Source: Candidatus Jorgensenbacteria bacterium (lineage in GTDB: Bacteria > Patescibacteriota > Minisyncoccia > UBA6257 > GWB1-50-10). Taken from it: 64,000 bases of DNA. Of this stretch, positions 3,008 to 54,647 are shown one piece after another. Positions within the stretch are counted from its first letter, which is position 1, and each line of letters starts with the position of its first letter. A program made the position numbers and the translations under genes. Location of the stretch: the NCBI GenBank assembly GCA_030648515.1, contig JAUSHK010000001.1, forward strand, positions 9,688 to 73,687, in the 5' to 3' direction. The notes under the pieces were generated by a model that saw only the letters and a list, made by a program, of their open reading frames with translations, was not told where the DNA came from and ran no database searches.

Positions 3008-3808
3008 TTACATAATAACTGAGGATAATTCCTTTCCTCGTTGGATCAATCTTTTTACGTCTTCCTCTTGAATATTCTCTTTTGGATGGGCGCAGTAATT
3101 TCCAATTTTAAATAGGCTCTCTAATTCAGATTTCTGGATTGCATTTATGACTGTTTCCTGCTCCAATGTATTAAGAATATCACTTACGCCAGGCTTCTTT
3201 TTTGACGGAGGATTGACCCCAATCGTTAAGGAGCGACTATTCACTACGGTTAACAAATGTCTTTCAAGCGCAACACGGGCAATTACCCCGCTTGCTCTAA
3301 TAGCAACTTCAATGAGTGGATAAGATTTCAATATTTCTTCGGCACTGGTGAATTCATCACAAGCAACGTTGAAACTAAGTTGAGTAACAACTTCAAGCTC
3401 TCTTGAACAAACTTCCTCCGCTAAACTTAAAAGTAATGAGCGAGCTCTCTGAAAGTATTCGGAAAAAAGGCCAAAACATTCTTCTCCTTGCACAAACGGT
3501 GGCCACGTAATTTTCTTCCCATAGCAATTAGTTCCAATATTAATATATTGTTGAATATCTGTAAATGATCTCCGACCTTGTTTATCATTTTTGGAACTAT
3601 CATAACAACCATCGAATTCTTCGACGCCGGAAAAGTGCTGTTGGACCAATAATTCTCTTACTCCGCGATACCATCTCTGTCCCTTAACAGATAAATCTGG
3701 CTGAACAATCTCGCCCTTACTTAATCTTTTGGCCAAGCTAAAGACCTCATTTGCTAATTCCTCTAATTCTTGAGCTCTTTTTGTTAATTTTATCAACTTT
3801 GATTTCAT
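3008..3808 (-). CDS. DUF4145-domain protein, co-operonic partner of the AbiEii-like gene
   Basis: C-terminal ~95 aa (AIRASGVIARVALERHLL...SDILNTLEQETVINAIQKSELESLFKIGNYCAHPKENIQEEDVKRLIQRGKELSSVI) follows the DUF4145 pattern R..LE..L...L...I..L...I...L..iGN..AH...i..ed. It lies 80 nt upstream of the AbiEii-like gene on the same strand. The N-terminal half is unrecognised. Confidence 0.55.
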   Translation of the reverse strand: MKSKLIKLTKRAQELEELANEVFSLAKRLSKGEIVQPDLSVKGQRWYRGVRELLVQQHFSGVEEFDGCYDSSKNDKQGRRSFTDIQQYINIGTNCYGKKITWPPFVQGEECFGLFSEYFQRARSLLLSLAEEVCSRELEVVTQLSFNVACDEFTSAEEILKSYPLIEVAIRASGVIARVALERHLLTVVNSRSLTIGVNPPSKKKPGVSDILNTLEQETVINAIQKSELESLFKIGNYCAHPKENIQEEDVKRLIQRGKELSSVIM

Positions 3809-4004
3809 ATAGCCTCGATGACTGATTTTTGCATATTCTTAAATCTTCAAGATTACCTTGATTTTGAGAAAATGTCTCAGACTACTAATGAGTTATAATT
3901 ATGAGGATGCCAAACGCGCAGTGGAGTTCTCATCCACAATTCGTTTGTAAGCATTTAAAACAATATCCATAACCATTCTGTTGGCCAGATGCAGTCTTAA
4001 TATA

Positions 4005-20105: not shown

Positions 20106-20154
20106 CTTTTCTGTTTTGCATTCATACGTGATACTTTCTACTTGATACATGCTA

Positions 20155-23153: not shown

Positions 23154-24500
23154 TTAAACTGAATTGCGTGTTTTCTTAAAAACTGCGACAAATAAAACTG
23201 AGACGAGTAAAAGAATAACGGCCAGCACGATAACATCAAGTGGGGTACCTTTTTCAACGGGAGATAATCCTGTATTAGGAAGGCTGGGCGCAGACACAAG
23301 GACGGTGGCGAAAGCATAGCCTATTGCGGTAAAACCATTTGCCTCGCCCTCGGCCGTAGCTACATTTCTGGTTGAAACTGGAACATTTGTTTTGCAGGTA
23401 TATGTCCATATTTCTCCTGGATCAAGCAAATTATTACTATTAGCATCACCGCCTGACACGCGGGAAACCGGACCGCATTTATCGTCAGTAACAGTAACAC
23501 CGCTCATCGCAACCACACCCGGGTTCGTTACGGTGTATGTATATGTAACATTACCTCCCCCAAATGAAAACGGGGTAAGACGACTCGGCACTTTTATAAT
23601 GTTAATAAGCGGAGGCGTTAACGGCTCGCCGACAACAACCGTGGCAATCGCAGTAGCGATTGCGACCTGGCGAAACCCGTCATCGCTGTATCCAGTTGCA
23701 ACTGCTGTGTTTGTAGTTGTCTTTGATAGAGTTTTAGTGCAACTGAATTTCCAAATTTCGCCTGGATCAAGCTTGTTATTACTGTTCAAATCACCAGAAA
23801 GCAGAACTATAGGACTGCACGTATCTCCTTTTATTGAAACATCGGTCAATGCTTGCTTGCCCCCAACATTCCAAACCGTGTAGTTGTACGTAACCGGACC
23901 AAATCCTCCGGGCAAAGCAAGCGGCGTAGGAACTTTAAGTATTCCAATTAATGGGGTCCTAATAACAGAACCGCCTCCGCTACCGCCGCTAATAGGATCT
24001 GATGCTACCTCGGGCAAGGGCGGAACATACGTGTTAGTAATTGTACAAGTTTTATCCTGACCCGCAGAAAGTGTTACGCTACCGCCAGAATTACAGCCTC
24101 CGCTCAAGATTCCTGTATACGAGGTTTTGGCATCTTCGCTTACTATATATGTGCCAGCAGAAAGTGAGTATGAGGTTCCAGGATCATCAGTCCCTGCTTG
24201 CGGACTTCCTGAAACTTCAGCTCCTCCTGAGAGCGTCACATGCAAACTAAAGTTGGCCGGAAGCGCTGTGCCACCGCCAGTATTCACCACCGCCTTAATG
24301 ACATGGAGGGTAGCCAAAGTTGAAGCAATGGTAACGGTAGCTGAAACGCCCGAGCTATTTGACGAAACAACTATGCCGGACCCGGCTACCGCATCGGTAG
24401 TTGCAACAAGCCGCGCCGTTAAAGTGTTCCCGCCGACAACGCCTGATCCGAGATTATATGAATACAAAATATTTAATGTAGAATTGGACGCAATTTGCAC
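23154..24500 (-). CDS. LPNTG-anchored surface protein with two DUF11-like repeat domains; no signal peptide at the annotated start
   Basis: C-terminal LPNTG, hydrophobic segment and KKTRNSV tail. Two ~100-aa repeats (VTY.YTV.N.G...SGD.NSNN.LDPGEIW.Y.C). A stop lies 3 codons upstream of the ATG in frame. Confidence 0.65.
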   Translation of the reverse strand: MQIASNSTLNILYSYNLGSGVVGGNTLTARLVATTDAVAGSGIVVSSNSSGVSATVTIASTLATLHVIKAVVNTGGGTALPANFSLHVTLSGGAEVSGSPQAGTDDPGTSYSLSAGTYIVSEDAKTSYTGILSGGCNSGGSVTLSAGQDKTCTITNTYVPPLPEVASDPISGGSGGGSVIRTPLIGILKVPTPLALPGGFGPVTYNYTVWNVGGKQALTDVSIKGDTCSPIVLLSGDLNSNNKLDPGEIWKFSCTKTLSKTTTNTAVATGYSDDGFRQVAIATAIATVVVGEPLTPPLINIIKVPSRLTPFSFGGGNVTYTYTVTNPGVVAMSGVTVTDDKCGPVSRVSGGDANSNNLLDPGEIWTYTCKTNVPVSTRNVATAEGEANGFTAIGYAFATVLVSAPSLPNTGLSPVEKGTPLDVIVLAVILLLVSVLFVAVFKKTRNSV

Positions 24501-24607
24501 CGGGCTTGAAAGTGTAAATACTGTTTTTACATTATCTCCAGTATATGTTGCTGGTGTTTTCTCTAGCAGAATATCCGCTCCATCTATCGCGCCTAAGGTT
24601 CCGTTAT

Positions 24608-25366
24608 CTATGAGAACTTAGTAGCAGAAACCTGAGTGGTATCATTCTCGGTTCCAGCTGGAGTAATCGCGAACGACACAATGGAATCTGATGTAGCCGC
24701 CGCAGCAATCGATAACTGTTTAACAACAACTCCGGTTTCGCTTGCAATTGCTGTTTTTGCGATAGGATCGCTTGCGCCGTCAGTAATGGAGAGCGACGGA
24801 GCAGTATCGCTCGCGGTAAGAGGATCTGTGTTTAATTTAGGAAAGCTTCCGGTATCAACGGCAACAGTGCCCATTAAAATATCAGTGCCTAATGCCATTG
24901 ATAACCTGAAAATCTGTGCGTTTCCAACACTAAGCCCGTCCGCCGTAATCAAAACTGACGCAGACCCGCCAGCCGGAACAACTACATCAGTAATATCGAA
25001 AGCTTGTTTTGTGTTATCTGATGCAAAAGCAGCAGACGCCCCAAGATTTGTATCGCCCTGGTCAACGAATCCGTTATTATTTACATCCTTATAAAAATGC
25101 AATGTAATAACAGTATCGTTTACATCTCCAACAGGCGTCGGAGTTAGTGAAGTGATTGTATCTTGGGCGTCTCCCGTATTTGTGATGTGCAATCTGTATA
25201 CCGACACTCCTTTAAATGTCGTGTACTGCGTTCCAGGGGTTACGTTGGTATTCGTCGCCGTATTAATCGCTGCCGCGTTCGCAACGGCTGGCGCGACAAA
25301 ACCAAACACAACAAGCACAAAGAAAACTGCCAATATAGTTGTTATTGAATTTTTACTGAACTTCAT
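24608..25366 (-). CDS. Secreted protein (signal peptide, no anchor), possibly the 5' half of a split surface-protein gene
   Basis: Start taken at MKFSKNSITTILAVFFVLVVFGFVAPAVANA. The track ORF extends to 25459, but that would overlap the upstream gene. Confidence 0.5.
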   Translation of the reverse strand: MKFSKNSITTILAVFFVLVVFGFVAPAVANAAAINTATNTNVTPGTQYTTFKGVSVYRLHITNTGDAQDTITSLTPTPVGDVNDTVITLHFYKDVNNNGFVDQGDTNLGASAAFASDNTKQAFDITDVVVPAGGSASVLITADGLSVGNAQIFRLSMALGTDILMGTVAVDTGSFPKLNTDPLTASDTAPSLSITDGASDPIAKTAIASETGVVVKQLSIAAAATSDSIVSFAITPAGTENDTTQVSATKFS

Positions 25367-25380
25367 ATATTTCTTGAGAA

Positions 25381-27003
25381 CTAAATTGCCCACTCCTTTC
25401 GAGCAAGGAAGAACGAGAGCAAGCCAACAAGTACCACTATTGGAGCAACAGTACCCCATGGAATATTGTCGTCAGAACCAATTCCTGTATTTGGCAATTT
25501 CGGCGAGGTTACCACAACAACAGCAGTAGAAGAATCGGAAGTGGTTAAGCTATTGGCGCCTCCGGTTGCCGTAGCTGTGCTTATAGTATTTGTCGTTGGA
25601 TTTGTCTGACAGGTATATGTCCACGTCTCCGAAGCATCGAGCATATTATTATTATTGACGTCGCCAGAATGACCAGTAATCGGGCTGCACTTATTATCGG
25701 AAATACTCACATTGCTTAAGGCGGCTGTGCCGGGATTGGTTACCGTGTACGTATAAGTAACTGCTTTGTTGGACGGAAGAACGAACGCGTTCGGCTTTAC
25801 TACAAGATGAATTAATGGGGGCGGTACTGCTGCCGCACCGACGACAACCGTTGCATTTGCGGTATCAATCGCGGTGAGGCTGTTAGCCTGACCAGTCGCG
25901 GTAACGGTGTTTGTGGTGGTTTGCGTGAGTGTTGTTGCGCAGCGGTATTTCCAAGTTTCACTGATATCAAGCTTCGAATCGCCATTAGTGTCGCCCGAAA
26001 CAAAGCTTATAGTTGGACATTTATCATCGGCGAGCACGACATTACTCATTGCGACTGCTCCGACATTCAAAACCGTATAATCATACGTAACTAATCCGGA
26101 TCCGCCCGGCAATGCCAGCGGAGTTGGAATTTTAGTAACATTGATTAATGGCGGGACAAGTGTTGTGGTAGGAGTTGGAGTTGTAGTCGGGGTTGGTGTG
26201 GGAGTCGGGGTTGGAGTCGGAATAGGAGGAACAACCGAACCAACAGGGACTGAAACTGCGCTTGCATCAAGCGTAACCGCGGTCTGCGCAAGCGCTCTGC
26301 CGTTTAATGTTGCGCCGGTATTTAGCGCAATAGCTGTCTGATCTAATATATTTCCATTGAAAACGGCTGTCGTCCCGATTGTTGTTTGTCCAGCAACCTG
26401 CCAGAAAATATTAGCTGCCTGCGCACCGCCAGTCAGATTAACATGGGCTGCGGAACTCACAGTGAGATTTTGCGCTACCTGGAAAATCCAAACATCACTT
26501 GCGCCGCCTGAAAGAGTAACATCGGTTGGTATGGTAACGTTAGTGCTCCACTTATAAAGCCCTGGCGCAAGCGTCATTCCGCCGATATTTCCTGAACCAA
26601 GCTCAGTCGCGGTCGGGTTTGTTCTTCCCGCGGCATCAGTGTAGGCAGTTTGCATGTCGCTTACGGCCGTGGTCATCGTAGTTGGAGTAGGAACCGCGTA
26701 GTCAGCCGCATATACTCTTCCAGTTACTAACGGCGACGTCGAAAACGCGTTTGAGGTATCTATTATCAATCCAAATCCGGTTATTGCACTTGCGGCAATT
26801 GGACTCACCCCGATGTTTCCGGTAATTAAAGTGGTTCCCGTGGTTGAAATCCCCGACTTTGCAAGAATTACAAAACTACCTGCCGACCCGAGATTTACTG
26901 CCGCCGGACCGGCCGCGAACGCGGCGATTGGCGCGAGCGAACCAAGCGCCAAAGAAACCGACAGTATAGTTACTACCAACGAATTCTTATTGAATTTTTT
27001 CAT
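25381..27003 (-). CDS. LPNTG-anchored surface protein: DUF3494 (ice-binding-like) domain, Pro/Thr linker, two DUF11-like repeats
   Basis: The N-terminal ~250 aa matches the DUF3494 pattern (GSAGSFVILAKSGISTTGTTLITGNIGVSP...GGMTLAPGLYKW...VWIFQV...NIFWQV...NGRALAQTAVTL). A PTPTPTPTPTPTTTPTPTTT linker follows, then two repeats as in 23154-24500, then LPNTG and a TM segment. Confidence 0.7.
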   Translation of the reverse strand: MKKFNKNSLVVTILSVSLALGSLAPIAAFAAGPAAVNLGSAGSFVILAKSGISTTGTTLITGNIGVSPIAASAITGFGLIIDTSNAFSTSPLVTGRVYAADYAVPTPTTMTTAVSDMQTAYTDAAGRTNPTATELGSGNIGGMTLAPGLYKWSTNVTIPTDVTLSGGASDVWIFQVAQNLTVSSAAHVNLTGGAQAANIFWQVAGQTTIGTTAVFNGNILDQTAIALNTGATLNGRALAQTAVTLDASAVSVPVGSVVPPIPTPTPTPTPTPTTTPTPTTTLVPPLINVTKIPTPLALPGGSGLVTYDYTVLNVGAVAMSNVVLADDKCPTISFVSGDTNGDSKLDISETWKYRCATTLTQTTTNTVTATGQANSLTAIDTANATVVVGAAAVPPPLIHLVVKPNAFVLPSNKAVTYTYTVTNPGTAALSNVSISDNKCSPITGHSGDVNNNNMLDASETWTYTCQTNPTTNTISTATATGGANSLTTSDSSTAVVVVTSPKLPNTGIGSDDNIPWGTVAPIVVLVGLLSFFLARKEWAI

Positions 27004-27370: not shown

Positions 27371-27446
27371 TGGAGCCACCTCCCGGATTCGAACCGGGGA
27401 CCTTTGCTTTACGAAAGCACTGCTCTACCAGCTGAGCTAAGGTGGC
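27371..27446 (-). tRNA. tRNA-Thr(CGU), CCA encoded
   Basis: Manual fold GCCACCT/AGGTGGC, D-stem GCTC/GAGC, anticodon loop UUCGUAA, T-arm CCCGG-TTCGAAT-CCGGG. Confidence 0.8.
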
Positions 27447-27449
27447 AAA

Positions 27450-27490
27450 CTACCAGCTGACCTGCCTGCGCAGGCAGGGCTAAGGTGGCG
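27450..27490 (-). repeat. Partial duplicate of the tRNA-Thr(CGU) 5' end (22 nt) split by an 18-bp palindrome
   Basis: Minus strand reads GCCACCTTAGC-[CCTGCCTGCGCAGGCAGG]-TCAGCTGGTAG, 3 nt upstream of the intact tRNA whose first 22 nt are GCCACCTTAGCTCAGCTGGTAG. Confidence 0.7.
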
Positions 27491-27526
27491 GATATCAAAA
27501 ACTCTACCACGAAGGGCAGAGTTTTT

Positions 27527-28054
27527 GAAGTAAGTCATAAGCCGGATTCTGTTTATACAATAATTTATCTGGGACCACGATTACTCGCGGACTCGAGCGG
27601 CATTTCCAGTGAGTAGTTAGTAGTTTGTAGTTTGTAGTTGCCTACTCACTACTCACTATTTACTACAAACTAGACACAGCCTTGCACTCAGGTAAGGATT
27701 TAGCCGTTTCATTTCCGCTTTTTTATCCCTATAGCGGAATTAGGCCACCTAGCTTGGGATTGGGCCTCCGCGTAAAGCTTTCGCTACGCGGCGTCACTGC
27801 TCGCACCTCTATCCTTGTCCGGCCTAAACCGCTTTCGCGGTCGGCTTAGGACTTGAGACGACGGGCGTTACCCGCTACCCTTTCCGATACCACTTTTGTA
27901 ACCAAGACACTGGCAAATATGCAACCTCTACTAAAACTAAAATTCGAATTGTCTTTCCATACTCAGTTACAAAAGCGGTACCGGATAAGTGTCCGGACTT
28001 TCCTCTCCTCAGCTCGCTCTGAGCTTGCCGAAGAGCTATTGCTTGACTTACTGG
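27527..28054 (-). ncRNA. rnpB: RNase P RNA (bacterial type A) carrying a heptad-repeat hairpin insertion
   Basis: P1 pairing AGTAAGTCA/TGACTTACT, P4 strands GAGGAAAGTCCGGAC and ACAGAATCCGGCTTA, and other conserved blocks (GGGTAACGCC, AGGTGCGAGCAGTGACGCCGCGTAGCGAAAGC). About 528 nt, longer than the usual 350-400. A terminator hairpin lies at 27495-27526. Confidence 0.8.
27608..27673. repeat. Inverted pair of (TNNGTAG)x4 heptad repeats forming a ~66-nt hairpin inside rnpB
   Basis: TGAGTAG TTAGTAG TTTGTAG TTTGTAG followed by its near-reverse complement CTCACTA CTCACTA TTTACTA CAAACTA. Confidence 0.75.
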
Positions 28055-29351: not shown

Positions 29352-30479
29352 TTATTTCAGCGCCTCCACGCCTGGCAATTTTTTACCCGACAAAAACTCA
29401 AGCATTGCGCCGCCGCCGGTGGAAAGAAACAAATTAGTTGGTAGTTCGTAGTGAGTAGTGAGTAGTTTAAGAGAAGCGAGTGTATCACCGCCGCCGACAA
29501 CTGTGTGGGCTTTTTTATTAGCAAGAACGGCTTTCCAAACTGCCTGCGTCCCCTCTTCGAATCCCTTTTTCTCAAACATTCCCATCGGCCCGCTCCAGAT
29601 AATTGTTTTCGCGCCTCGAATAATTTTCACATATTCTTTTGTAGTTTCGGGCCCGATGTCTAAAACTTTCGTCCCTTTCATTTCTACGTCCGTCGGTAAA
29701 ATAACATCCGGAGAAAACGCGTATTTTTTCACTTCATCAAGCGAGTTGTAATCCACAAGCGAATCCCCCATTGGAACTCCTTCCGCCGCAAGCATCGTGT
29801 TTGCCGGCCCTCCACCCAAAAGAAACTTATCAGTGCGCCCCCAAAAGTTTTTGATGACACCGAGCTTATCTGAAATTTTCGCCCCTCCAATAATTACTAC
29901 AAACGGCTTTACGCGTCGTTTCATAATTTTCCCGAGTTCAACTAGCTCTTTATTGAGATGTGGCCCCGCAAATGACGGCAGAAATCGCGTGACACCGGAA
30001 AGCGACGCGTGCGCTCTATGTGAAACGCCGAACGCCTCATTTACATAAAAATCCCCTATGCTGGCAAGCTCTTTCGCGAACTCTTTATCGTTATTTTCTT
30101 CCCCTGACGAATACCTGAGGTTTTCAATAAGAAATAGGCGCGCGGGCGCGCTGCGGACTTCTTTTTTGATATTTTTAAAATTATGTTCAGAGGAAAAGCG
30201 TATCGGCTCCATGAGTTCCTGCGAAAGAAACTTCGACATACTGTGAAATGAGTATTTCTTGTCTCCAAAAAACGCCGGCCGCCCCAGGTGTCCTATGAGA
30301 ACTACGCGCACGCCATTACTTAGTAAAAGTCGGACGGTTTCCATTACCGCTTGAAGCCGCAACGAATTTTTCCGTTCCCTGTCGGGAACATCCAAATCCG
30401 CCCGCAACAAACAAACTTTCCCTTTGTATTGTTTCAAAACCTTCGGAGTCAAAATACGCATGGACTTATAATACAGCAT
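29352..30479 (-). CDS. pgk: Phosphoglycerate kinase
   Basis: Full-length PGK homology. The C-terminal STGGGAMLEFLSGKKLPGVEAL is preceded by a heptad-repeat-encoded KLLTTHYELPTN. Confidence 0.9.
   Translation of the reverse strand: MLYYKSMRILTPKVLKQYKGKVCLLRADLDVPDRERKNSLRLQAVMETVRLLLSNGVRVVLIGHLGRPAFFGDKKYSFHSMSKFLSQELMEPIRFSSEHNFKNIKKEVRSAPARLFLIENLRYSSGEENNDKEFAKELASIGDFYVNEAFGVSHRAHASLSGVTRFLPSFAGPHLNKELVELGKIMKRRVKPFVVIIGGAKISDKLGVIKNFWGRTDKFLLGGGPANTMLAAEGVPMGDSLVDYNSLDEVKKYAFSPDVILPTDVEMKGTKVLDIGPETTKEYVKIIRGAKTIIWSGPMGMFEKKGFEEGTQAVWKAVLANKKAHTVVGGGDTLASLKLLTTHYELPTNLFLSTGGGAMLEFLSGKKLPGVEALK
29434..29467. repeat. (TNNGTAG)x4 heptad repeat inside the pgk 3' coding region
   Basis: TTGGTAG TTCGTAG TGAGTAG TGAGTAG. 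The antisense strand encodes KLLTTHYELPTN. Confidence 0.7.
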
Positions 30480-30943: not shown

Positions 30944-31064
30944 GAGCTCCTGGCAAAGCTTACTTTCCCTGCCGCCGAAGCGGCCAGTATCATCAGCATT
31001 GAGCGCTTTTACTTCCGAGTTCGGAATGGATCGGGTAGGGCACGCTCAACTAAATCACCAGGAA
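30944..31064 (-). rRNA. rrf: 5S rRNA
   Basis: CCATTCCGAACTCGGAAGT...GATGATACTGG...GGGAAAG...GCCAGGAGC, with helix I pairing CCTGG/CCAGG. Confidence 0.75.
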
Positions 31065-31149: not shown

Positions 31150-34670
<3,521 letters not shown>

Positions 34671-37755: not shown

Positions 37756-37756
37756 G

Positions 37757-37828
37757 AGCCACCTCTCGGATTTGAACCGAGGACCTTCACTTTACAAAAG
37801 TGTTGCTCTACCGCTGAGCTAAGGTGGC
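37757..37828 (-). tRNA. tRNA-Thr(UGU), 1 nt from the preceding tRNA
   Basis: GCCACCT/AGGTGGC acceptor stem, anticodon loop UUUGUAA. Confidence 0.75.
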
Positions 37829-37918
37829 ACAATACTAAACTATCCTTCAACAAACGCTGAATCAGAATAAAACAGTTGATCCTCATTCACATCGCCATGC
37901 GAAGCGTTGCGAGCGCGG

Positions 37919-37957
37919 TACCGCTGACCTGCCTGCGCAGGCAGGGCTAAGGTGGCG
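37919..37957 (-). repeat. Second partial tRNA 5'-end duplicate split by the same 18-bp palindrome
   Basis: Minus strand reads GCCACCTTAGC-[CCTGCCTGCGCAGGCAGG]-TCAGCGGTA. The GCGGTA D-loop matches the adjacent tRNA-Thr(UGU), not the CGU copy. It lies ~90 nt 5' of that tRNA. Confidence 0.7.
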
Positions 37958-40132: not shown

Positions 40133-40819
40133 TTATCTGCCGCCGTTGTGCCTATTCCTCCACTCCGCGATTTTCTTGTGATTGCCCAAGAGCAAGACAT
40201 CTGGAACTTTCCACGCTTTTCCTCCTTTGCCAGTCTTAAAAACATCCGGTTTTGTATAGACGGGGTATGATCCTTGTATTTCTTCAAGCGATTCTTGCTT
40301 CCCTAAAACGCCCGGCGCATGGCGCGCGACGGCATCAACGACAACCATCGCCGGCAGTTCGCCTCCCGACAATACAAAATCCCCTATTGAAATTTCTTCG
40401 TCGGCGATATGTTCTGCAACACGCTCATCAACGCCTTCGTACCTGCCGCAAATCAAAATTATATTGTCATACTTCGCGAGCCGACGGGCAGCCGCACTGT
40501 CAAATTTTTTTCCGCGTGTGGAAAACAAAATCACGCGCGTTTTCGCTTTTTTGCCAAGGAGCTTTTTTATGGATTCAATGGCGCGAAAAATCGGCTCAAC
40601 TCTCAAAACCATTCCGTGTCCCCCGCCGTACGGAGAATCATCAAGCGTTCTCCGCCATCCGCCAGCCGGCGGAGCAAGCTTCTTCTTCTCCGCAAAATCG
40701 CCTAGCGCGTAGGCCGCTATTCGTATGGCCTTTTTCGCTTGTGCCTTGCCTAAAATTGACGCGTCAAAATATGAGCGGAAAGCGTCCGGGAAAATCGAAA
40801 GTATATGAAACGTAACCAT
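40133..40819 (-). CDS. trmD: tRNA (guanine37-N1)-methyltransferase TrmD
   Basis: SPOUT-fold TrmD motifs (LSIFPDAF, SPYGGGHGMVL, ICGRYEGVDERV, GDFVLSGGELPA). Start taken at MVTFHILSIFP rather than the track start at 40873. Confidence 0.85.
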   Translation of the reverse strand: MVTFHILSIFPDAFRSYFDASILGKAQAKKAIRIAAYALGDFAEKKKLAPPAGGWRRTLDDSPYGGGHGMVLRVEPIFRAIESIKKLLGKKAKTRVILFSTRGKKFDSAAARRLAKYDNIILICGRYEGVDERVAEHIADEEISIGDFVLSGGELPAMVVVDAVARHAPGVLGKQESLEEIQGSYPVYTKPDVFKTGKGGKAWKVPDVLLLGNHKKIAEWRNRHNGGR

Positions 40820-40882
40820 ACTATTTACTCTAAACAAAACCGCCCCAAGAAACAAACTGGGGCGGCTTTGCAAAATGTAAAA

Positions 40883-45093: not shown

Positions 45094-45744
45094 TTACATA
45101 GTACCGAACTTCCTAATGAAGGTCAATCGGTGAATATCCGAGGGGCCGTATTTCACAAGCGCCGCGATGTGCGCCCGCGTCCCATACCCTTTATGAATAT
45201 GAAAATTATACCGCGGATACTTTTTGTGCAGACGCGCCATTCGCTTATCCCGCGTCACTTTCGCGACAATTGAGGCAAGTGAAATAGCTGGGATTTTCTC
45301 GTCGCCCTTGATGATAGTTTGTAGTTTGTAGTTGGTAGTGAGTAGTTTTGGAAACTTATTAACATAAAGTCCTCCATCTAAGAAAACTCTAGTTCCCGAA
45401 ATGGAGATTTTATGTTTTGTAATGAGTTTTTTAAACGCGCGGGTTGCCGCAAGATTCGCCGCTTGTGTGATGTTTATTTTATCAATAACTCTCGGCGAAA
45501 CACTCGCTATTGCGTATGGTATTTTCTTTTCTTTCACCCATTGAAACCACGTCTCTCTTTGCTCTGGTGATAGTTTCTTTGAATCTCTTAGGCGTATAAC
45601 ACCTTTTTTCTTTTTCTGAATACTAGGTACTTTATACTTTATACTTGATACTCGTCTCGGCAATGCAACAGCCGCGACGGTTACTGGCCCCGCAAGCGGC
45701 CCGCGCCCGACTTCATCAATGCCGATGATCCAATGCCTTGCCAT
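45094..45744 (-). CDS. rnhB: Ribonuclease HII, with two repeat-encoded in-frame insertions
   Basis: GIDEVGRGPLAGPV, DSKKLS, KGD...ASIVAKVTRD. Extra segments VSSIKYKVPSIQKKKKGV and KLLTTNYKLQT are encoded by heptad repeats. Confidence 0.85.
   Translation of the reverse strand: MARHWIIGIDEVGRGPLAGPVTVAAVALPRRVSSIKYKVPSIQKKKKGVIRLRDSKKLSPEQRETWFQWVKEKKIPYAIASVSPRVIDKINITQAANLAATRAFKKLITKHKISISGTRVFLDGGLYVNKFPKLLTTNYKLQTIIKGDEKIPAISLASIVAKVTRDKRMARLHKKYPRYNFHIHKGYGTRAHIAALVKYGPSDIHRLTFIRKFGTM
45318..45345. repeat. (TNNGTAG)x4 heptad repeat inside rnhB
   Basis: TTTGTAG TTTGTAG TTGGTAG TGAGTAG. Encodes KLLTTNYKLQ on the coding strand. Confidence 0.7.
45619..45652. repeat. (TACTTTA)-type heptad repeat inside rnhB
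   Basis: AATACTAGG TACTTTA TACTTTA TACTTGA TACT. Encodes part of the extra VSSIKYKVPSIQ segment. Confidence 0.65.
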
Positions 45745-45784
45745 TAATGTTGATTATACGGCTTAAATTTAAAAACAAAAAACT

Positions 45785-45812
45785 AAGCCCTTATGCAATT
45801 GCATAAGGGCTT
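45785..45812. terminator. Perfect palindromic hairpin terminator
   Basis: AAGCCCTTATGCAATTGCATAAGGGCTT. Confidence 0.55.
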
Positions 45813-45829
45813 ATAATTTTCGAGAATTT

Positions 45830-53549: not shown

Positions 53550-54647
53550 ATGTCAATCCCAACAAAAACCCGTAAACTAATTGTCGTCCTGGGCCCCACA
53601 GCGAGCGGGAAAAGCGACTTGGCGGTTGAAATCGCAAAACACCTGCCTCCTGCATGCGCAGGCATGGCGCAGGCAGGCCTTAACGGCGAGATTATTTCCG
53701 CCGACTCTCGCCAAGTTTACCGCGGAATGGACATTGGAACTGGCAAGGTCCTACGAGATCATCGCACTCATACTAGATACGAGATACTTGATACTAAATA
53801 CTTGTACCGCGGCATTCCCCATCATCTTCTAGACGTCGCGAGTCCAAAACGAACATTCACTGTCGCGCAATACCAAAAACTTGCACGAAAAGCGCTTGAG
53901 GATATTTGGAAGCGTGGTAAGCTCCCGATTATCTGCGGAGGAACGGGGTTTTATATTCAATCAGTCGTTGACGGGCTCGTTCTGCCGGAAGTAGGACCAA
54001 ATCCCCTGCTTCGTAAAAAACTCGCGAAGAAAACAACGGATGAACTTTTTAGAATGCTTAAGAAAAAAGACCCGGCACGCGCAAGAACCGTTGATTCAAA
54101 AAATCGCGTCCGGCTAATCCGTGCCATTGAAATAGCGGAGACACTCGGAAAAGTTCCGAAGCTCAAAACCACACCCGTAGAAGCCGACATGCTCATAGTA
54201 GGAATAAATCCGGATAAAAATCTTCGTCCGGCAAATGATGTAAAAATGGATACCATTTTCCCAAAAAGTTCCAATCCTGAAGGTGGTATGACATGTCATA
54301 CCACCTCCGCATCAATAATTTATAAAACAGAAAATGCGCCCAAACTCCGGAAACGTATCTTGAAGCGGCTCCTGAAACGCATTGATGAAGGAATGATTGA
54401 GGAAATTGTACGCCTTCATAAAAACGGCGTCTCATGGAAAAAGCTTGAATCATTCGGGCTTGAATACCGCTACGGCGCGCTCCTGCTCCAAAATAAAATA
54501 TCGCGCGGTGAATTCATAAAACAGCTTACACACGCCATCAACCAGTACGCCAAGCGCCAAATGACATGGTTTAAACGCGATAAGCGGATACATTGGATTA
54601 AAAACGAGAAAGAAGCGCTCCGACTTACAAAACAATTTGTAAAATAG
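53550..54647 (+). CDS. miaA: tRNA dimethylallyltransferase MiaA, with a palindrome-encoded in-frame insertion
   Basis: P-loop GPTASGKS, then ISADSRQVYRGMDIGTGK. The 11-aa insert PPACAGMAQAG lies between the P-loop helix and ISADS. Confidence 0.85.
   Translation: MSIPTKTRKLIVVLGPTASGKSDLAVEIAKHLPPACAGMAQAGLNGEIISADSRQVYRGMDIGTGKVLRDHRTHTRYEILDTKYLYRGIPHHLLDVASPKRTFTVAQYQKLARKALEDIWKRGKLPIICGGTGFYIQSVVDGLVLPEVGPNPLLRKKLAKKTTDELFRMLKKKDPARARTVDSKNRVRLIRAIEIAETLGKVPKLKTTPVEADMLIVGINPDKNLRPANDVKMDTIFPKSSNPEGGMTCHTTSASIIYKTENAPKLRKRILKRLLKRIDEGMIEEIVRLHKNGVSWKKLESFGLEYRYGALLLQNKISRGEFIKQLTHAINQYAKRQMTWFKRDKRIHWIKNEKEALRLTKQFVK
53643..53678. repeat. Extended variant of the GC-rich palindrome inside the miaA coding sequence
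   Basis: CCTGCC-TCCTGCATGCGCAGGCATGG-CGCAGGCAGG, about 36 nt in frame. GC content is far above the local background. Confidence 0.65.

Follow-up and report, generated by a model that had tools for sequence, protein, structure and literature searches.

An 18-bp palindrome that splits tRNA 5' fragments in Patescibacteria and other bacteria: a candidate ultra-short insertion element

The locus considered here raises the question of how a short GC-rich palindrome came to interrupt a truncated copy of a tRNA gene next to the intact gene, and whether such a palindrome is mobile. The window, that is, the whole stretch of 64,000 nucleotides of Candidatus Jorgensenbacteria DNA that was analysed, has a G+C content of 45% and holds two exact copies of the 18-mer CCTGCCTGCGCAGGCAGG (PAL), compared to no matches in 100 shuffles. 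Read on the minus strand, copy 1 is arranged as GCCACCTTAGC, PAL, TCAGCTGGTAG, TTT and tRNA-Thr(CGT), and copy 2 as GCCACCTTAGC, PAL, TCAGCGGTA, 90 nt and tRNA-Thr(TGT) (Table 1). An earlier note on this DNA had claimed that both palindromes are perfect and that each splits, after nt 11, a duplicate of the first 20 to 22 nt of the adjacent tRNA-Thr gene, and both statements were borne out by sequence identity. The claim that the duplications arose locally and independently, on the same strand as the tRNA, was also upheld, as the right-hand pieces match the D-loop of their own neighbor (CTGG versus CGG). In the relatives L160 and L201, tRNA-Thr(CGT) is identical at 75 of 76 positions and has neither an upstream fragment nor PAL, and the same holds for tRNA-Thr(TGT) in L182 (73 of 73 positions identical), L158, L181, and L161. 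Because each copy matches its own tRNA and the sites of the relatives are empty, the two window copies are deduced to be local and of separate origins.

Table 1. Positions of the PAL copies, the tRNA fragments that they split and associated features, in the window (positions without a locus label) and in other loci
Feature	Position	Strand	Remarks
PAL copy 1, perfect 18-bp palindrome	27461-27478		Exact match
PAL copy 2, perfect 18-bp palindrome	37928-37945		Exact match
Pseudo-fragment, nt 1-11 of tRNA-Thr(CGT), GCCACCTTAGC	27479-27489	-	Sequence identity
Pseudo-fragment, nt 12-22 of tRNA-Thr(CGT), TCAGCTGGTAG	27450-27460	-	Sequence identity
Spacer TTT, copy-1 fragment to tRNA-Thr(CGT)	27447-27449	-	3 nt
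Intact tRNA-Thr(CGT)	27371-27446	-	
Pseudo-fragment, nt 1-11 of tRNA-Thr(TGT)	37946-37956	-	Sequence identity
Pseudo-fragment, nt 12-20 of tRNA-Thr(TGT), TCAGCGGTA	37919-37927	-	Sequence identity
Spacer, copy-2 fragment to intact tRNA-Thr(TGT)	37829-37918	-	90 nt
18-mer AACGCTTCGCATGGCGAT in copy-2 spacer	37891-37908		10 nt from fragment
Intact tRNA-Thr(TGT)	37756-37828	-	
RNase P RNA (class A) gene	27523-28054	-	Rfam 74 bits, under gathering score 100
Two adjacent large ORFs with common internal 66-nt repeats	23154-27003	-	
5S rRNA	30948-31062		
23S rRNA gene	31157-34658	-	Spans 3.5 kb versus 2.9-kb model
Group I intron in 23S rRNA gene	31452-31670		
miaA, host of insert	53550-54647	+	365 aa, PF01715, ORF intact
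In-frame insert in miaA, encodes LPPACAGMAQAG	53642-53677	+	36 nt
Outer PAL of miaA insert	53642-53648 and 53667-53677		
Inner 18-mer of miaA insert	53649-53666		
Second in-frame insertion in miaA	54206-54322	+	117 nt
Perfect 26-bp palindrome AGGTGGTATGACATGTCATACCACCT in second miaA insertion	54281-54306		
One-mismatch TCCGCCAGCTGGCGGA copy	40658-40673		In frame (APPAGGW) in ORF 40133-40873
Heptamer-type repeats, two families (TACTTGATACT-like, GTAGTTT-like)	53771-53795, 20125-20149, 45628-45652; also 27593-27640, 29435-29468, 45315-45348		
Perfect 30-bp AT-rich palindrome TAAGCCCTTATGCAATTGCATAAGGGCTTA	45784-45813		Between two minus-strand ORFs
tRNA-Gln fragment	L027, L110, L037, L042, L038		Split after nt 10
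tRNA-Thr-like fragment, two cases	L094		Split after nt 9
tRNA fragment	L120		Split after nt 12
tRNA-Glu fragment	L036		Split after nt 12 by 36-nt composite
Recurring 36-nt composite, PAL-like outer stem, 18-mer AATGCTTCGCATAGCGAT at exact centre	L036 3404-3439; L045 7641-7676	L045 -	
Endonuclease-type ORFs beside tRNAs	L027 1772-2014; L110 510-707; L037 ~3620-3940; L038 6967-7173; L009 6667-6903		
TCCGCCAGCTGGCGGA loci	L121 1133; L122 3337/10258/13924; L066, L082, L097, L105, L107, L112		
IS200-like Y1 transposase genes	L029 3672-4301; L031 1495-2184		Also L067, L164
Diversity-generating retroelement	L121 1950-3360		Reverse transcriptase and bAvd

The surroundings of the window copies were also inspected. 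The 3' end of the RNase P RNA gene lies 33 nt upstream of the copy-1 pseudo-fragment, and the rnpB-tRNA-Thr synteny is retained in L160. This RNase P RNA was missed by the gathering-threshold Rfam scan and contains large insertions, including a long hairpin of GTAGTTT-type heptamer repeats (~27593-27680). Of the two ORFs with 66-nt repeats, the one that encodes an ice-binding-like domain (PF11999) is located immediately downstream of tRNA-Thr(CGT). The window also holds 23S and 5S rRNA genes, the former with a group I intron, while no 16S rRNA match was reported in it. Promoter and terminator scans near both window PAL copies gave nothing above shuffles. The spacer of copy 2 contains AACGCTTCGCATGGCGAT, an 18-mer to which we return below.

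Further copies beyond the window proved to be spread phylum-wide, with exact PAL matches in at least 120 loci in a scan of species-representative genomes (one per species). The 120 matches listed comprise 71 from labelled Patescibacteria, in at least 20 named lineages (including WWE3, Microgenomates, Paceibacterota, Saccharibacteria, and Kaiser-, Nomura-, Woese-, Gottesman-, and Uhrbacteria), 16 from Bacteroidota or Ignavibacteriota, 10 from low-GC 'Gammaproteobacteria' MAGs, 8 unclassified, and 15 from other lineages, the last mostly in high-GC genomes where chance matches are plausible. Most PAL loci are low in GC, and the 18-mer is not expected there by chance. Copy numbers are lower bounds and taxon shares are samples, among the matches listed. 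Contigs of up to 840 kb hold at least one to three exact copies, and in one contig of 598 kb the three copies are dispersed at ~41, 151, and 344 kb. On this sampling, PAL is widespread in Patescibacteria and is also present in some other, mostly low-GC, bacteria. An assembly artefact is an unlikely source of PAL because the same 18-mer was found in assemblies of many projects and assemblers, in two strain-named (not MAG) loci (L055, Litoribacter ruber KCTC 22899, and L057, Rosettibacter primus 4148-Me), and at the orthologous miaA codon of an independent Logan contig (L121), and because its reading frame in ORFs is strongly nonrandom. A viral source was rejected, there being 25 viral contigs only, mostly high-GC and with no multi-copy master element. 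Among the papers searched, none contained the 18-mer, and keyword searches gave analogues only.

The arrangement at the window tRNAs recurs. About 12 PAL sites in 10 genomes, namely, the two in the window and those entered by locus in Table 1, split a tRNA 5' fragment (Thr, Gln, or Glu) at nt 9 to 12, and these ~12 cases are the basis of the tRNA statistics. Whether the split follows nt 9, 10, 11, or 12, it always lies in the 5' strand of the D stem. Usually the fragment has the sequence of the intact tRNA located 3 to 385 nt downstream, the duplicated part being the 5' 16 to 25 nt, and some fragments include ~8 nt of upstream flank. In L036, the 36-nt composite is a PAL with one mismatch whose exact centre holds the 18-mer ATCGCTATGCGAAGCATT, and this case was found without selection for PAL at the site, as any split fragment was sought near 137 tRNAs. 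Next to 135 tRNAs, no tRNA 5' pseudo-fragment without a split was found. Thus, ~9% of PAL sites (among the matches listed) are in the D stem of a truncated 5' tRNA copy next to the intact gene, a sequence class that is otherwise essentially absent, and this implies either very strong targeting or joint insertion and partial duplication. From the absence of unsplit fragments in this modest sample, we infer that insertion and duplication are coupled. As empty-site controls, 39 intact tRNA-Thr loci were obtained with the metagenome pattern GCCACCTTAGC-N(0-30)-TCAGC, whose matches were mostly due to chance, with no gap-18 case among the matches listed. Other structured RNAs were sought by Rfam at 19 loci with noncoding PAL, where only tRNAs and one group II intron were found, none overlapping PAL.

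These data bear on two proposals of the earlier note. The link to tRNA 5' halves holds as a recurrent phenomenon, with ~10 further cases in 8 other genomes, but not as recognition of a defined sequence, since there is no sequence-defined target and the split point varies. The view of the tRNA duplication as a target duplication is not supported in that form, as what is found is a partial 5' gene copy 3 to ~385 nt from the intact gene, sometimes with an ORF between. The note had also offered an alternative, in which selection would maintain the hairpin and pseudo-acceptor as a 5' leader of the neighboring tRNAs or as a signal for their processing. Such a role could explain why several lineages have the arrangement upstream of tRNAs, without exception on the sense strand, and the copy-1 fragment, with a spacer of only 3 nt, would be co-transcribed with its tRNA. 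However, there is no conserved position or spacing, the spacer ranging from 3 to ~385 nt and sometimes holding an ORF, and in L038 the split copy is downstream of the intact tRNA. The arrangement is also absent from the relatives with 75/76- and 73/73-identical tRNAs, and the same 18-mer is mostly found in ORFs. In the predicted minimum-energy fold of the tRNA leader, the pseudo-acceptor pairs with the true tRNA 3' end, competing with the true 5' end, and this would hinder maturation. The leader role was consequently deemed highly improbable and is largely refuted.

The character of PAL as an insert was deduced from its flanks, its reading frame, and its empty sites. The flanks are nonhomologous between loci, except in a few genomes where PAL lies inside a larger local repeat, and the flanks show no signal other than a bias toward a purine at -1 and toward a pyrimidine at +1 (R-PAL-Y). 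No flanking direct repeat above chance was found at PAL sites, and ~90% of the copies (among the matches listed) are at unrelated coding or intergenic sites with no such repeat. Nor did a search for separated PAL half-sites flanking a larger element, as in a transposon footprint, find any. A canonical target-site duplication at the palindrome is contradicted by these flanks and by miaA, where filled and empty sites differ by exactly 18 nt. Compared to orthologous empty sites, PAL aligns as a discrete 18-bp block without target-site duplication, and the same alignments have PAL sites turning over between close relatives; the window sites are empty in the relatives named above for the tRNA genes and in L122 for miaA. 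Units were also seen nested in one another: in the window miaA the inner copy follows nt 7 of the outer one, and in L036 and L045 the exact centre of PAL holds an insert of 18 nt.

All six frames of PAL are free of stop codons, and stop-free spans of at least 600 nt hold 54 of the ~127 PAL sites. For the 54 copies in ORFs of at least 600 nt in genomes of <55% G+C, the frame encoding LPAQAG was used by 42, followed by PACAGR (10) and CLRRQ (2). This bias indicates that the copies are translated and that selection filters them. The idea that PAL enters where the target already forms a hairpin was not supported, as the folding energy of 109 reconstructed empty sites was no different from that of 2180 controls (p = 0.33). 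The empty sites have neither a general hairpin nor a sequence target that could account for the tRNA tropism. Two further associations were rejected: a period-7 score for heptamer or low-complexity sequence at 2 of 109 sites versus 0.4% of controls (not significant) and flanks lacking one base (9.2% versus 6.7% of controls; p = 0.33).

Some tRNA cases include a gene that could be relevant to their origin. Between the fragment and the intact tRNA lies a GIY-YIG ORF in L027 (a pseudogene in L110) or an HNH-like ORF in L037, and an ORF of this type lies beside the tRNA in L038. Separately, small GIY-YIG genes and an HNH-like ORF were noted directly beside tRNA-Gln or tRNA-Ser genes in several Patescibacteria. 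PAL could accordingly be a repair scar, in which a fixed filler closes breaks or nicks, made for example by GIY-YIG or HNH endonucleases in tRNA genes. This filler would have been added as one and the same 9-nt tail to both 3' ends, which would then pair through the central CG, or captured as a blunt hairpin oligonucleotide, and the local tRNA duplications would result from templated fill-in. That PAL is a perfect palindrome of two 9-mers without target duplication is consistent with this proposal, as are the endonuclease ORFs, the 18-nt insert units (including the one exactly at the PAL centre in L036 and L045), and the short local duplications that accompany PAL in the tRNA copies. A scar of this kind is nevertheless judged unlikely. 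Most tRNA cases, including both in the window, are without an endonuclease gene or remnant; six-frame translation of the window tRNA-Tyr to tRNA-Thr spacer revealed no such remnant, and the window spacers of 3 and 90 nt between fragment and tRNA hold no ORF remnant. Most PAL copies are clean inserts in ordinary genes with no break-repair collateral, no source of such a filler is known or was found, and identity across phyla would still require a common template or enzyme.

The most detailed view of an insertion site was obtained from miaA, whose product in the window is 100% identical to a protein assigned to Candidatus Jorgensenbacteria. The earlier note had described an extended palindrome variant in this gene, and the insert is real, but it spans 53642-53677 rather than 53643-53678 and adds 12 codons (LPPACAGMAQAG) relative to the closest orthologues rather than 11 residues. 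It consists of an outer PAL, CCTGCCT and GCGCAGGCAGG, broken after nt 7 by the inner 18-mer CCTGCATGCGCAGGCATG, which has two mismatches to PAL. The close orthologues L122 and L125 lack the insert, as comparison of miaA genes showed. In L121 (protein P0003), a single perfect PAL occupies the same codon as the double copy of the window (..AAGCG-PAL-ATATAAC), and L122 (P0002) and L125 (P0004) are exactly 18 nt shorter than L121 at this site, with no target duplication. The closest MiaA homologues, P0001 to P0004, are 71 to 78% identical over shared columns and form a near trichotomy. In other homologues, different inserts occupy the same MiaA loop, and the site is therefore permissive. L122 is a close, syntenic relative of the window, and a base-level alignment of ~17 kb between the two contains few indels of at least 9 nt. 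Hairpin blocks account for several of them, namely, in the window miaA, the PAL block of 36 nt and a palindromic insert of 117 nt and, in L122, blocks with TCCGCCAGCTGGCGGA. The 117-nt insertion is in frame, is absent from all MiaA homologues listed, and, with its 26-bp palindrome, looks like a larger RPE-like palindromic insert. In L121, the miaA with PAL is directly followed by a diversity-generating retroelement, for which no connection with PAL was apparent.

The PAL of the window miaA and that of the L121 miaA are identical at 18 of 18 positions, in genes that are 74% identical and in which only 60% of the codons at conserved residues are the same. This is deduced to reflect separate insertions into a permissive loop, selection acting on the sequence, or homogenisation, and the identity at the shared site fits selection or repeated insertion as well as recent mobility. 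It therefore bears on a second alternative, in which PAL is the selected binding site of a dimeric DNA-binding protein (compare parS, NBS, and matS) or an RNA hairpin signal. A perfect palindrome present in few copies per genome would suit a binding site, as would its identity in very divergent lineages and, despite near-saturated synonymous divergence, at the shared miaA site. Against this, close relatives do not keep PAL sites, the three copies in the 598-kb contig are dispersed, and there are nested copies, copies in dead tRNA fragments, and copies in several phyla. Extra 18-nt blocks in housekeeping ORFs, with a frame bias indicating filtering at the protein level, are likewise difficult to reconcile with a binding site, and this alternative is considered decidedly unlikely.

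PAL is accompanied by other short palindromes. Another widespread palindrome rich in GC, TCCGCCAGCTGGCGGA, behaves like PAL: it is read in frame as PPAGG or PPTGG in the MiaA of three lineages (P0002, P0003, and P0005), at three different positions, and it also adjoins PAL in Bacteroidota loci. The 18-mer AACGCTTCGCATGGCGAT of the copy-2 spacer is 16/18 identical to the 18-mer nested in the PAL-like elements of L036 and L045, and the 36-nt composite together with this window relative suggests further families of 18-nt units. Repeats of another type were noted as well. Degenerate heptamers of two families (TACTTGATACT-like and GTAGTTT-like) are found repeatedly in genes, miaA among them (peptide HTRYEILDTKY), as well as in rnpB, and tracts of other heptamers are common in Patescibacteria loci. 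A long AT-rich palindrome, TAAGCCCTTATGCAATTGCATAAGGGCTTA, is also present in the window (Table 1).

Taken together, the data are best explained by PAL being an ultra-short, non-autonomous, palindromic insertion element, apparently selfish and with a tropism for the tRNA D stem, and we assign this reading a probability of roughly 0.55. The unit would be 18 bp long, perhaps 20 with the purine/pyrimidine flank. Mobility is deduced from presence and absence between relatives, and the low copy number, few per genome as a lower bound and unlike that of classical proliferating repeats, speaks against it. As an insertion element, PAL would fold on itself into a single-stranded hairpin and, in this form, move or be copied into DNA that is transiently single-stranded, either through a trans-acting activity encoded away from the PAL copies or through template switching to another copy. 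A preferred entry point may be the 5' end of tRNA genes, which are heavily transcribed, close to the promoter. A hit in a single-copy tRNA would presumably be lethal, and only events with a partial 5' duplication and an intact downstream gene would therefore be seen. The partial duplication probably occurred in the same repair event as the insertion, or was tightly coupled to it, because unsplit fragments were not found.

Candidates for the mobilising activity were sought next to PAL. When the 297 ORFs lying within 450 nt of PAL were compared all against all by BLAST, pairs were the only groups obtained, and there was thus no recurrent gene family. The IS200-like Y1 transposase genes found near PAL (Table 1) were rejected as mobilisers, as their cognate palindromes differ from PAL and they are not enriched near it; in L029 and L031, the Y1_Tnp gene is flanked on both sides by its own palindromes (GAGCGATATCCGATATC type and CTTAGAGGTGACACCTCTAAG), a REP/RAYT-like arrangement in Patescibacteria that is unrelated to PAL. 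A broader proposal can be made in which PAL and sister 18-nt units such as TCCGCCAGCTGGCGGA are fixed hairpins pasted by a trans activity common to Patescibacteria and other phyla, without target duplication, with a hotspot in the tRNA D stem and with a coupled, templated duplication that rescues the gene. This proposal is put forward tentatively and is regarded as rather doubtful.

If PAL truly propagates as an 18-bp unit, the minimum size of mobile or self-propagating DNA would be lowered, and this in the Candidate Phyla Radiation, whose genomes are streamlined and are thought to be poor in repetitive DNA. Propagation of PAL would explain why Patescibacteria proteins contain a puzzling class of short inserts that are GC-rich, such as LPAQAG and PPAGG, and inserts of this type have consequences for annotation, for alignments, and for the prediction of structures. 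That tRNA 5' pseudo-copies are repeatedly split in the D stem suggests that tRNA genes are vulnerable in a specific way or that a specific repair pathway acts on them, and the identity of PAL across phyla could serve as a marker for gene flow or for a common enzyme. Were the hairpin-pasting proposal true, no mobile DNA unit smaller than PAL would be known, and protein loops and tRNA loci of ultra-small bacteria would have a new source of evolutionary change.

The earlier note had likened PAL to a mobile mini-palindrome of the REP/MITE type. This likeness was retained insofar as PAL is dispersed and differs in presence between relatives, and it failed the tests of REP and MITE membership that were run. 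REPs are extragenic and imperfect, carry a GTAG or CGTC tag, are species-specific, number tens to hundreds of copies, and flank a RAYT gene. PAL resembles them as a short GC-rich palindrome dispersed in bacterial genomes. However, PAL is not confined to extragenic sequence (the stop-free spans cited above, and the miaA copy inside a conserved gene), no conserved tetranucleotide such as GTAG or CGTC was found at its flanks, and at the loci examined no RAYT (Y1_Tnp) gene is flanked by PAL itself. The copy number of at least one to three per contig and the identity across phyla also differ from the high-copy, species-specific REPs. Compared to MITEs, which have terminal inverted repeats enclosing an internal region, a target-site duplication, and a related autonomous IS, PAL has no internal region, being two abutted 9-mers, no direct repeat above chance, and no half-site pairs. 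Compared to IS200/IS605-derived palindrome-associated elements (PATEs), whose left and right subterminal hairpins are distinct and which insert 3' of a fixed tetra- or pentanucleotide, it is a single symmetric 18-nt hairpin with no conserved nucleotides 5' of the insertion point.

Closer functional likenesses were found elsewhere. Rickettsia palindromic elements (RPEs) are ~100 to 150 bp long, form several sequence families in one genus only, and are palindromic selfish DNA found in frame in housekeeping genes, where they are translated, and also in RNA genes. PAL is like the RPEs (Ogata et al. 2000) in being in frame and translated, in occurring also in RNA-gene sequence, in being tolerated in surface loops, and in its presence or absence between relatives. 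The in-frame palindromic insertion absent from orthologues was indeed observed for PAL at the miaA sites and in the frame statistics, the resemblance being functional only. It is unlike them in being an 18-bp perfect palindrome that is identical across many classes and more than one phylum, and PAL was not assigned to the RPEs because both the length (18 versus ~100 to 150 bp) and the host differ. The cyanobacterial small dispersed repeats (SDRs) SDR4-6 are 21 to 27 nt long, largely intergenic, lineage-restricted, and of higher copy number, and to our knowledge no tRNA D-stem association or frame-filtered coding copies have been reported for SDRs. PAL is comparable to these repeats (Elhai et al. 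2008) in being shorter than 30 nt, hairpin-forming, and dispersed, with evidence of recent insertion and nesting and no encoded enzyme.

Outside bacteria, mitochondrial GC clusters and double-hairpin and repetitive hairpin-forming elements are described from yeast, Allomyces, and sponges (PMC2800124, PMC8811140). Like PAL, the GC clusters are GC-rich hairpins that invade AT-richer compact genomes, including in-frame and rRNA or tRNA positions. Unlike PAL, the mitochondrial elements are organellar and usually 30 to 60 nt or longer, some have short target duplications, and there is no sequence relationship. The tRNA cases of PAL are similar to tRNA-targeting integrative elements and homing endonuclease cassettes in that a displaced partial tRNA copy lies beside the intact gene. 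Classical integrases displace the 3' part of the tRNA, and the elements carry the integrase. With PAL, the duplication covers the 5' 16 to 25 nt, an ORF is missing from most cases, and PAL splits the leftover copy every time; no integrase was found between the PAL-split fragment and the tRNA, where the GIY-YIG or HNH-like ORFs of L027, L110, and L037 lie instead. PAL is set apart from the known analogues by its size of 18 bp, its identity across classes and phyla, and its association with the tRNA D stem.
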